From Sminthopsis crassicaudata (Eukaryota), in the NCBI RefSeq assembly GCF_048593235.1, contig NC_133623.1, positions 1,488,001 through 1,552,000 of the forward strand: a DNA stretch of 64,000 nt, in the 5' to 3' direction. Below the pieces are notes generated by a model. It had not been told where the DNA came from. It did not search any database and was given only the letters and a program-made list of their open reading frames with translations. A program made the position numbers and the translations under genes. How positions within the stretch are numbered: the first letter of the stretch is position 1; the number at the start of each line of letters is the position of its first letter. Below, piece after piece: positions 14,937 through 19,197 of the stretch.

Positions 14937-15220
14937 TTTTCCCCTGAGGCAATTGGGGTTAAGTGACTTGCCCAGGGTCACACAGCTAGGAAGTGTTAAG
15001 TATCTGAGGCCAGCTGGTGCTCTACCCACTAGCTGCCCCGAGCCTCTGTCATGCTTAACCTTTTTTGGTGTCACAAATCCCTCCGGCAGTCTGGTAAATC
15101 CCGTTTCCAGATGCACCAAATAAAATACACAGTAGTGCACAAGAAGCCAATTTTATTGAAATAGTTGTGCAGCCATTTTCTGAAAAGCCACTGTGGCCCC
15201 TAGCTTGAGAACCCCTAAGC
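14937..15220. mobile_element. Internally deleted SINE (14937-15038, -) followed by a hAT-like MITE remnant (~15040-15220)
   Basis: SINE consensus, then cttaacctttttt...ggcagtctggt...gcttgagaacccct, resembling a short non-autonomous hAT element. Confidence 0.6.
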
Positions 15221-16775
15221 CTTAAGGCTTAGCTCATGTGCCATCTCCTCCAGGAAGGCTATGGATATCAAATTACCTCCTGTTTGCCTGGTAACCGTGG
15301 GAGCTTCCTGCCACTAAGGCCGGAATCGGATCCACCACCCACTGTCCCTTATTATGACTCCACAAAATATAGAGTAAAACCTGCCACCAGGAACTGACTG
15401 TGAGCCATGGGAACATTTGTGGTGGGGGTCTCCCAGCCTGGCAGGTGGAGTTCATTAGTAGTCAGGCTTTAGGCTAGGGGGGAGTTCTACAAATGGGAAA
15501 GAAATCTGGGCTCCCAAATCCATGCCTGAGCCACGGGCGGTAATGGGAGGCTCTGACTGGACTACACCCGTGCCTGCCCAAGGTCTTCTCCATGGTGGAG
15601 GTCGGGAAGGTGTTTGCACAGGGCTGAGCATAGTGACTGGTACGTAGTAGGCCCAGAATAAAGGTTTGTGTGTGTTCCCTCTTCCCCCCCCCCCCCCCCC
15701 CCCCCCAGTAAATGTGGTTCTCGGGCCTCCCCACCTATTCCTTTGGAACACATCTGTTACCCTCCTCAGCCAGGACCCAAATGAGCTGAGCTTTTTCTTC
15801 TCCCTGAAGGCTGCTTTTGTCAGCTCCTGGCTTCCTCGCCCCCTGTCCCTGCAGCCATAAAAGCCCCAAATGCAGTGCTGCTCCTTGAACTACATCAACA
15901 GAATCCTGTGCTGAAAGCCCACGCGGGAATCTGCTGGGAGATGGGAGACTCCTCAGCTTTCCCGGGCCTTCCTTGGGCCTCTGCCCTCTTTGAACTGGCC
16001 TCCTCCCACTTTCAGCGCCCCTGCCATCTGCGCCTGACAGAGCCAGGAAGGCTCTAAAGTTCGGGCCCAGGGCCTCCTCACAGCGGGGCAGCTTCACGTC
16101 ATCGCCTGGGCTGGGCTTGGCTAGGCCACACTTCCTGAGAGGAAGCTCAGGGGCCCTGGAGCCTCATTCTGTCTCCCAGTCTTCTCTTCCCCCAAAGCTG
16201 AGGAGTCCTCCCCTCAAAGCTTCTGTTAGCAGGTACAGCTTCTCTTACAGGTTCTCTTTGAGTCTGTCTCAGCCTCTGAGGGGTGGGGCAGCAACAGGTT
16301 CTTGGCAGGTTCTGGGGCAGCTTGGCAGCTCTTCTCCTCCCCCCCCCATCCCTGTCCTCCCTACCCCGCCATGGCACTGGGCACTTTCTCTTCCTTCTGA
16401 AGGCTAAGCTAGATCTGAGGGAGGCCCCCTTTCCTTCAGGAATTAGCCCCCTCGGCCTGGCTCTGCACAAACAACCCTTAATGGCCACCTGCCCCTTGCC
16501 CCATTTCTCAGGTCCCTAGAGGGGGAGGTTGTATTTTCAACCCTGGGGTCCCTGAGCAGGATGGAGCCATGACTTGCCAGCTGCCTTTCCTTTCCCCCTT
16601 GGTTTGAGGCAAGGTGGTCCCATTTCTCGGACTGCCCCCCTGCCCGATCCCTGAGACAGTGGGGCAAGCGCCAGGCGGCTAGAAAAGCCTGCATTCAAGC
16701 ATGGCTTTGGCGAGGGAAGCATCTGGGCCAGAGAGTGCGTGCCTTGCGGCCTCTCACGTTCTCCCCCTCTTGAAG

Positions 16776-17719
16776 GAGAGCTCAGCTGAGCTTGAAGCTC
16801 CAGATGTGGGGCTTGGGGAGCCGTAAGTGCTATCTGGCTTCTCCTAGAGGTCGGGGTCCATTTCCTGCCTCTGAGCCCAAGTGGCAGAAGGCGCATCTAA
16901 GGTTAGGGTTAGGCTGCTTTCAGTTCCTCGCTGTCAGTTTTCTTCCAGGGCCTCGGCGGTGCTGGCCAAACCGGTCATGGCTGCGACGTACGCCTCGGTG
17001 CAGAAGCGAAGCCACGCTCCGGTCCCGGCCGCAGCCTGCGACTCCGCCGAGGCAGAGCCCGAGGGGGCCGTGTACAGCACCGTCAAGCCCAGGGCCCTGC
17101 GTGGGGGACCCGCGACTCCCACGGAATACACTGCCGTGGCCTACCCTGGCTCAGCAGCCCTAGAAAGCCCAGCGTGCTCCTCCCCAAGTTCTGGGAGGCC
17201 CCTGCTGTCCTCGGTAAGTGGCGAAGCTGGGGGGCTGGAACATGCTGGGCAGCCCAGTTGCCTGGGCCTCCTTCCAGTCGCTGCCTTTCTCCTCTCTAGG
17301 TTGTTGCCCCCAGCATCACAAGGAAAGGTAAGTAGGGATGTGGCTGCAGGTAGAGCTTGGTGGAGGCCTGATGCAGGGGCTGGGAGTGGGGATCTCCCCA
17401 GGAGCTTCAGGGTTTTGAACTGGGCTTTCGTGGCATCTTGTCCACAGTCAGCACCCCTCCCAGGAACTGCCCCGGGCCCGAGGCCTACGAAGACGTGACA
17501 GACATTGCAGCTCCAAGCCTGGGCCCCAGCGGCCTCCAGCCCAGCAGCAGCCTTGGTGAGTGGTAGCAGAGAGAGCACCCAGCTTTTCCTCTGCCCCCTT
17601 TCCTGTTCTCTCAAATCTTTCTCAGGTCCCAACCCTTCCCTCTTCCCACAGGCTTCAACATTCGAATCGGGAAACCAAAAGGTCCCCGGGATCCTCCAGC
17701 CGAGTGGACTCGAGTGTAG
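16776..17719 (+). CDS. PTPN18: PTPN18 (PTP-HSCF/BDP1) 3' non-catalytic module; no phosphatase-domain exons found upstream
   Basis: In-frame exon chain 16776-16822, 16949-17213, 17300-17327, 17448-17555 and 17652-17719 (516 nt), all GT-AG. Encodes MAATYASVQKR, AVYSTVKPRA, EAYEDV and the C-terminus GFNIRIGKPKGPRDPPAEWTRV*, nearly identical to human GFNLRIGRPKGPRDPPAEWTRV. AATAAA at 17828-17833. Confidence 0.85.
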
Positions 17720-19197
17720 GAAGCCTGTGGAGCTTCCTTCCCCGGAGCCCAGGCCCAAGGCAGCTTTGGCTGCGGTTCCTTAGGCCGACATTAGGCAGGT
17801 GGGCCCCCAAATTAGAGTTCTTTTTGCAATAAAAATTTTCCCCATCCTGGATGAGTTGTCCTTGTACCTCTACCTCAGTGTACCCCAAGGTGTCAGGTGC
17901 TGAATTGGCTCCAGAGGGGGAAGCACAGAAGGGTTAAACTTGTTCTGCCCTTCAAAGGCCCCAATCAGCAGCACTGAAGAGCAGAAATTGGGTTTAACTG
18001 AGAAGGAAGCCTTCTTAAGGGTAAAAAGTTTCCAAGTGAAATGGGAAGAACAATGGCCCTCTTTCCTGCAGAGGGGGGATTCCCAGATGGAGATGGATTG
18101 TACTAAATGGCTATGCTAAAAAAGAACCTCCCCGCCTTGGCTAGATAACACCTCAAGATCCATTCCCCAAGGTTGTCTGAGGCCTAATTCATTGCTGCCC
18201 AAGGAAACATGACAAAGCTTAGACCCAGCAGATAGCTACTCCGGGTTCCCGTCCTCAGCGGAGGAAGGCTCCACAGCCTGGGTTCAGGGACCTGGGCCAG
18301 CTCCCTAATTCCCATCCATCCCTGACCTCGTGATCGACTGTGGTGTGACCACTTAGGGCTCCCGGCCTCAAAGGGCCAATTTCCCCTGGCTCCCGTTGCC
18401 CGAACCCAAACCAGCATATGCCAGAGAAGAGTTTTCAGTGTGTCCATCACAGGAAACATAGAAACCTTTAGCATTGGCTGGCTGTAATGCTCATCCTGCT
18501 AGTGCCTCGAGCACAAGGTCCCAGAAACACAAAAGCGCAGATGGGGCTACAATAGAGCGGCCCCCTTGTGGGCAAGGCTGGTTTCACCTTTTGCCTTGGT
18601 CTGTGGTCCAGCTTGTAAACAGAATTTTAACGTCTTGGTCTCTAAATGTGGATAGCTGGAGCCGCACCAAGCAGCCTAGACCTGCATTTTAGAGCTCAAG
18701 TCATGGTTTAATTCATATTGAGGAAAAGTCTGTAATCTGGAAGCTCTCCAGGGCAGGGGACCTCCCCCTGTTGCAGCAAAAGGTACAAATCATAAATCGG
18801 AAAGTAGATTCTAATACAATCAATACTGTTAAAATACAGGGTGTGAGTGGTTGCCCATGACAAGCCTGAAGATGTATGATAACAGGGGTGTTTCCAGTCC
18901 CGAATGCCAGGAGGTTGTTATTGGGACCACAGTTCAGTGACAGGAACAAGAGTTCTCCAATCTTTGATTCACTTCACTTAACATACGCAAGCGGGTGTTG
19001 TCAAGAACTGACTGTTTCAAGCTGTGTTGTAAGTCCCATTCCCAAGTCACTCTGCTGGGAAAATGGTAAAACTTTTAAAAACCTAGGCCATTAGTATATT
19101 TCATTCCACGTATCACGCTGACAATTATGAAAATTATGATCGTTTTCCCAAGGGCACGATCCGATGCTAGCTCTGCAGATGCTTTCTCGGGGGCCTG

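Follow-up and report, generated by a model that had tools for sequence, protein, structure and literature searches.

A PTPN18 Gene without Phosphatase Exons in Sminthopsis crassicaudata and in Annotations of Other Marsupials: A Spliced 146-Residue Frame with Conserved Docking Motifs

Introduction

How much of what the PEST-family phosphatases do is due to catalysis, and how much to scaffolding, is an open question that a clade keeping only the docking tail of such an enzyme would help to answer. PTPN18 (PTP-HSCF, BDP1) has been studied as a HER2 phosphatase and as a regulator of blood cells. The stretch of DNA analysed here (the window; 64,000 nucleotides, positions 1,488,001 to 1,552,000 of contig NC_133623.1 of the dunnart Sminthopsis crassicaudata) contains the 3′ exons of a PTPN18 gene, and an initial annotation made from the letters alone proposed that the gene survives as an adaptor devoid of its protein tyrosine phosphatase (PTP) domain. 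Are the catalytic exons really gone, are the remaining exons expressed and maintained, and what could their product do? The gene was found to be the single, syntenic PTPN18 of this genome, lacking the phosphatase exons and spliced into a 146-residue frame. From its motifs, the product is likely (a probability of about two in three) to be an enzyme-free adaptor predicted to join PSTPIP proteins, through its CTH, to the kinase Csk, through phosphotyrosines.

Absence of the Catalytic Domain

The six frames of the window contained no PTP motif set in a PTP context. A hidden Markov model profile of the catalytic region, built from nine full-length PTPN18 proteins (start to end of the linker), gave no match on 464 kb comprising the window and 200 kb on each side (best score 8.6 bits), and the larger exons of PTPN12 and PTPN22 scored 27–56 bits in the same run. 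This 464-kb region contains two small runs of N, both far to the right of PTPN18, and the stretch between the upstream MON1-family gene and the PTPN18 exons is free of them. The repeat content at 6–15 kb is L1-like and SINE-like, as judged by eye without a repeat library. The lack of PTP motifs reported in the initial annotation was thus borne out, and the catalytic exons that it suggested seeking as a possible refutation were found neither in the 200 kb left of the window nor in the genome searches described below. Nesting of the MON1 gene in an intron of PTPN18 was rejected, neither flank having a catalytic match within 200 kb.

In the genome, platypus residues 1–93 (10 of 10 candidates scored) found exons of PTPN12 and PTPN22 and none of PTPN18. 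No locus standing out as PTPN18 was obtained with platypus P0017 (57 of 57 candidates scored), with the full-length platypus protein P0015 (79 of 109 candidates scored) or with galago P0016 (94 of 113 candidates scored). The four most similar catalytic loci were identified through the PDB as PTPN12, PTPN22, PTPN21 and PTPN14. All 11 tetrapod PTPN18 proteins checked contain the motif WPDRG[IV]P; the corresponding DNA pattern matched twice in the genome, neither time in a PTP context. The 146-residue product matched no Pfam family (0 found). It lacks the classical PEST-family PTP domain (KNRY, WPD, HCSAGxGR, Q-loop), and it is no pseudophosphatase with a kept fold and inactivating substitutions, the whole domain being gone. 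STYX-type pseudophosphatases, likewise inactive and derived from phosphatases, retain a dead catalytic fold, whereas here the entire domain is deleted.

Among the scored candidates, the CTH exon of the window apart, the only matches to P0015 and P0016 on its contig (C7) were two PTP genes without introns, at 14.1 and 15.4 Mb. These two were considered as a relocated PTPN18 and discarded: the one at 15.44 Mb (L001) is PTPN2-like by the PDB, and the other (L002) resembles it. L001 has an open frame of 526 residues and a signature, HCRAGVGVSG, without the conserved Arg, and may be a retrogene pseudophosphatase. The gene at 14.13 Mb (L002/L012) has an intact signature and a frameshift after the WPD motif. 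Fragments of a further PTPN2-like retrocopy (L009, C2:102.49 Mb) adjoin a retrovirus-like pol stretch.

Splicing and Open Reading Frame

Contigs from four runs (four studies), presumed to be RNA, were aligned to positions 15050–18400. Although the nature of the runs is presumed, the GT..AG joints of the contigs imply spliced RNA. All three coding joints were present at GT..AG in the four runs, the joint 16232|16938 in three of them (the remaining one reads through the intron unspliced) and the joint 15639|16016, also GT..AG, in one. No loose contig ends were found at the locus in any run. The translation of the 146-residue frame (Table 1) was identical to RefSeq model P0039 of S. crassicaudata, and the three coding variants among the contigs were all synonymous. 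Contigs of two runs stop at 17849, just beyond the polyadenylation signal.

The initial annotation had described five 3′ exons in one open frame, ending in a CTH and a poly(A) signal and including a 28-nt micro-exon, with an ATG at 16977 (gtcATGg) giving about 146 residues. Four coding exons, the micro-exon with its joints in every run, the CTH, the AATAAA and the start with its context were all confirmed. The fifth exon (16776–16822) was rejected, being absent from all four runs and from models P0039 and P0047. This stretch may be a decayed relic of the ancestral exon preceding the tail: in a post hoc test its anchored score was in the top 1.1% of 19,111 matched 15-mers, only in the top 6% of the 1,313 starting with Glu. 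The exon given as 16949–17213 is real, but the contigs use the acceptor 16938; acceptor 16949 is used solely by the RefSeq model P0047 (267 residues). Two upstream non-coding exons (to 15639, and 16016–16232) had not been listed.

Model P0047 was reproduced from the coordinates; its additional residues come from the upstream exons, starting at ATG 15522, and no Pfam domain was found in them. In the 16938 splice form an in-frame TAG (16227) lies 15 codons before the start ATG, and therefore the 146-residue frame cannot be extended upstream. The N-terminal extensions of the devil, tammar and 267-residue models were dismissed as conserved coding sequence, since they differ among species and that of the devil shifts the frame relative to the window. 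A first exon in the CpG island of the MON1 gene was also dismissed, no joint or matching loose end being seen in four runs, of which two seem to be a single data set deposited twice. The extension of a Dromiciops PTPN18-like model weakly matches 5626–5838 (E 7.5e-5), and positions 5626–5875 of the plus strand may be an alternative first exon in this island, where low-depth unspliced contigs cover 5010–5994.

Orthology and Marsupial Distribution

A 140-residue Dromiciops query matched 27 longer proteins among 1,113 candidates. All but one carry the PTP domain (PF00102) and none of these 26 is marsupial; they come from lizards, a snake, frogs, fish, platypus, shrews and galago and are nearly all named PTPN18. 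The 27th is the domain-less model of the devil. None of the gene-named longer matches is PTPN12 or PTPN22. The tail DNA is single-copy in the genome and contains introns, and is neither a retrocopy nor a duplicate. CCDC115, IMP4 and PTPN18 are grouped in human 2q21.1 (PMC3914896) and on cattle chromosome 2 (PMC8908906), as in the window. The full-length PTPN18 proteins of platypus (P0015, 551 residues) and galago (P0016, 451 residues) share both this synteny and the tail motifs Met-x-x-x-YAxV, YSxV, YED and CTH. From its closest full-length relatives, synteny and single copy, the gene of the window is the orthologue of PTPN18. Compared with platypus PTPN18, the whole part preceding an internal Met (residues 1–360) is gone, and with it the PTP domain, linker tyrosines and original start.

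RefSeq models of PTPN18 without phosphatase domain were found in 12 marsupial species of five orders (dunnart, antechinus, devil, bilby, koala, wombat, brushtail possum, sugar glider, tammar, monito del monte and two opossums), under the names PTPN18, PTPN18-like or uncharacterized. In 10 of the 12 the model has 140–147 residues and starts at a common Met; those of devil and tammar carry unrelated extensions drawn from upstream exons. This Met descends from an internal position of the ancestral protein and does not vary among the 18 PTPN18 proteins aligned. Three protein searches gave no marsupial PTPN18 model with a PTP domain, and the full enzyme is present in platypus, lizards and placentals. 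A search of 1.84 billion representative sequences returned three matches below 1e-10, each of them a short protein of a marsupial; since a full-length one could be hidden in a 50% cluster, this search was not counted as evidence of absence.

The deletion is thus probably clade-wide in marsupials. Since platypus keeps the full enzyme, a single loss on the marsupial stem, before the American and Australian lineages split, is the simplest reading of these annotations. The alternative raised in the initial annotation, a very recent truncation, is refuted by the occurrence of the short form alone in opossums, monito del monte, bilby, diprotodonts and dasyurids; the loss is an old one. No report of a marsupial PTPN18 loss was found in the literature searched, which mostly excluded subscription papers and in which supplementary gene-loss tables could hold one.

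The meerkat PTPN18 models (P0058 and P0076–P0078; 105–183 residues) keep the tail and lack the HCSAG signature. Unlike the marsupial proteins, the meerkat model retains degenerate catalytic remnants; if real, it would represent a separate event in a separate lineage. A short or degenerate PTPN18 model with the tail motifs kept was also noted in Myotis davidii (P0056).

Conservation of the Tail

The frame is open in all 12 marsupial species and every indel of the alignment is in-frame. Five non-marsupial orthologues are identical at 36 alignment columns; 32 of these columns do not vary among the 12 marsupials, as compared with 36 of the remaining 110 (Fisher p 3.6e-9). A neutral simulation (simple, one branch, no indels, tuned to 74–82% identity at the other columns) kept on average 26–29 of the 36 columns and gained a stop in 58–72% of trials, against 34–36 of 36 kept and no stop observed. 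By this sequence comparison the tail is under purifying selection and the retained exons are not neutral; neither a broken frame nor neutral evolution, as expected of a pseudogene, was found. With spliced RNA, conserved motifs and non-neutral exons, the view that an expressed PTPN18 persists without its catalytic domain and with its docking motifs for Csk and PSTPIP has gained support.

None of the four tyrosine motifs varies among the 12 marsupials. Tyr5 (YASV) and Tyr33 (YSTV) align to Y354 and Y381 of PTP-HSCF, given as Csk-binding sites in Table I of PMC2194115; by the same table, YASV matches SIT Y169 and YSTV matches Hic-5 Y60. The Tyr51 motif (YTxV) is shared with platypus and lizards and missing in the eutherian rows of the alignment, as is the peptide of the micro-exon, which aligns to platypus and lizard PTPN18. 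The motif DQSPAGS, which precedes the YEDV site, is missing in all 12 marsupials, in platypus and in lizards. The CTH is kept, with the Arg and Trp equivalent to R799 and W805 of LYP, residues described as important for binding PSTPIP1, with contacts conserved in PTPN18 and one LYP CTH bound per PSTPIP1 dimer (PMC8840930); the pair would resemble the solved structure 7AAM. AlphaFold predicted no fold for the 146-residue product (pLDDT 53, pTM 0.11; shallow alignment of 10 sequences), which is weak evidence of disorder. Lack of a predicted fold is expected for a string of short motifs.

Proposed Function and Alternatives

The 5′ half of PTPN18 would have been lost once, before the American and Australian marsupials separated, and the old tail exon would now be served by a local promoter with non-coding exons. 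By analogy with the full enzyme, Fes or a similar tyrosine kinase is predicted to phosphorylate Tyr5 and Tyr33, on which the SH2 domain of Csk would dock, while the CTH would anchor the complex on the F-BAR dimer of PSTPIP1 or PSTPIP2. Csk would thereby be brought to membrane and actin sites and Src-family kinases damped, and the catalytic work would be supplied by the intact paralogues PTPN12 and PTPN22. This PSTPIP-anchored linker, with its binding steps predicted by analogy, is favoured because the literature on Csk sites, on Fes and YSxV, and on the CTH fits the motifs that were kept. Binding of Csk to PTPN18 is described as requiring the YSxV tyrosine, being driven by Fes and not needing the catalytic cysteine (bioRxiv 10.1101/125088).

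Such a protein would resemble the Csk-recruiting adaptors PAG/Cbp, LIME, SIT, Dok-1 and Hic-5, likewise non-enzymatic and with Y[A/S/T]xV sites. It differs from them in its phosphatase ancestry and in having no transmembrane, PH, PTB or LIM domain, so that its targeting would come from the CTH. PTPN12 (PTP-PEST) and PTPN22 (LYP/PEP) share this PSTPIP-binding motif; unlike PTPN18, they retain catalytic exons in this genome, and they are described as binding Csk through its SH3 and not its SH2 domain (PMC9792154).

Several points weigh against the adaptor. On the side of binding, the Fes-site motif is given as LYSxV in bioRxiv 10.1101/125088 and the marsupial site is VYSTV, and the phosphorylation-dependent Csk binding described in the sources used here concerns full-length eutherian PTPN18 only. 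The presence of Csk and PSTPIP in the genome was assumed, Csk not having been searched for; PSTPIP1 and PSTPIP2 were not among 11 FCH matches (two identified by the PDB as FNBP1 and CIP4, nine judged by eye, none PSTPIP-like) in a search that may miss short exons. With respect to the loss, three genome searches were scored in part (150 of 202, 79 of 109 and 94 of 113 candidates), identification of the PTP matches covered part of them, and absence in the other 11 species is that of RefSeq models, not of genomes. Finally, the 5′ UTRs contain one to six upstream ATGs, which may reduce translation, and three of four Gracilinanus models use a frameshifting acceptor, the fourth being an intact 147-residue isoform. 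The contigs bear on joints, not on tissues or on where transcription starts.

The anatomy described above, with one CTH per PSTPIP1 dimer (PMC8840930), would suit a competitor equally. As a decoy, the short protein would fill the single PEST-binding site of the dimer, displace PTPN12 and PTPN22, soak up Csk and raise signalling. All three PEST phosphatases share that site according to the same source, inflammation follows loss of PEST-phosphatase binding to PSTPIP2 in mice (PMC9807597), and both potential victims have catalytic exons in the genome. A pure competitor, however, requires the CTH alone, yet the tyrosine motifs are invariant in every marsupial examined, as would suit a two-ended linker, and the decoy is considered unlikely. 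Still less probable is that the tail acts through different partners, be it a receptor, an E3 ligase or another SH2 protein, as described for the human PEST region on HER2. In isolation this region promotes ubiquitination of HER2, to which its last 55 residues bind (PMC4152746), but DQSPAGS, required for this HER2/beta-TrCP ubiquitin adaptor role, is what the 12 marsupials, platypus and lizards lack.

That catalytic exons exist and were missed, in a gap, a Y copy or a distant locus, the short protein then being a minor isoform, appears very improbable. The genome searches were not exhaustive and tail-only models also occur in species with the full gene (gecko P0044 beside P0048), but no N run separates the MON1 gene from the PTPN18 exons, the domain is missing in twelve independent annotations, no contig in four runs has a loose end, an in-frame stop lies before the ATG in the prevailing splice form, and the same searches recovered the paralogues. 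A transcribed pseudogene or non-coding remnant without protein function is scarcely credible, for the upstream ATGs, the frameshifting acceptor of Gracilinanus and the lack of a fold are set against a frame open in 12 of 12 species with in-frame indels only, conservation focused on the motifs, and an intact isoform in Gracilinanus as well.

The linker reading can be extended, tentatively. PTPN18 may have discarded its enzyme at least twice in mammals (stem marsupials and cat-like carnivores) while the tail was selected, in which case its indispensable job would be that of a non-catalytic linker between Csk and PSTPIP F-BAR proteins; marsupials would be a natural clade-wide catalytic knockout that is probably X-linked and has a formerly internal Met as its start. 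The 146-residue protein is a natural construct for direct tests, and the marsupial tail marks the motifs under selection, namely four tyrosines and the CTH. The inventory of marsupial phosphatases is also corrected, databases still labelling the short models as PTPN18 or PTPN18-like. There may be a bearing on marsupial immune signalling, because PSTPIP–PEST complexes restrain inflammation in mice.

Neighbouring Genes and Other Features

Table 1. Position and strand of the features of the PTPN18 locus in the window.
Feature	Position	Strand	Basis or remark
MON1-family gene, three longin domains, head-to-head with PTPN18	368..3991	-	Pfam; MON1B is the label of the initial annotation
Upstream 5′ exon, holds ATG 15522 of the 267-residue model	15354..15639	+	joint in 1/4 runs; 15354 reflects a contig end rather than a mapped start site
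TATA-like box, candidate proximal promoter	15856..15862	+	sole motif match in 14500–16950; contig of run X8 starts at 15800
5′ UTR exon	16016..16232	+	joint to 16938 in 3/4 runs
Exon-like stretch skipped in RNA, possible decayed relic of ancestral pre-tail exon	16776..16822	+	
First coding exon, alternative acceptor 16949	16938..17213	+	contigs, RefSeq models
Open frame of 146 residues, CTH at C-terminus	16977..17719	+	segments 16977–17213, 17300–17327 (28 nt), 17448–17555, 17652–17719
Start ATG, ancestral internal Met	16977..16979	+	alignment of PTPN18 proteins
Tyr5 motif YASV, aligned to PTP-HSCF Y354	16989..17000	+	alignment
Tyr33 motif YSTV, aligned to PTP-HSCF Y381; human Y389 by motif	17073..17084	+	alignment
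Tyr51 motif YTxV	17127..17138	+	alignment
28-nt micro-exon	17300..17327	+	joints in 4/4 runs
Coding exon with Tyr102 motif YEDV (codon 17486–17488)	17448..17555	+	contigs, alignment
Last exon: CTH 17652–17716, stop TAG 17717–17719, AATAAA 17828–17833	17652..17849	+	
Brix-domain gene, assigned to IMP4 by synteny, tail-to-tail with PTPN18	19437..20047	-	Pfam
CCDC115 exon	22097..22177	+	

PTPN18 and IMP4 are tail-to-tail in the window and in tandem in human, which hints at an inversion around the two genes in one lineage. Most marsupial homologues were located on contigs of 61–103 Mb, the size of marsupial X chromosomes; C7 has 89.9 Mb. On the minus strand at 58000–64000 the window contains an RBM10/RBM5-like gene (RanBP zinc finger, C2H2 finger and OCRE-like stretch). 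From the contigs of the homologues and this gene, C7 is probably the X chromosome and the PTPN18 locus X-linked, in contrast to the autosomal loci of human and cattle.

Outside the gene, an L1 3′ end of about 500 bp was noted by eye to recur in tandem at 7400–8500. Elsewhere in the genome, an intronless open Brix-domain frame of 298 residues was observed on C6 at 155.09 Mb (L109), and an intronless CCDC115-like frame of 239 residues on C2 at 261.49 Mb (L113), possibly an autosomal retrocopy of the one on C7.

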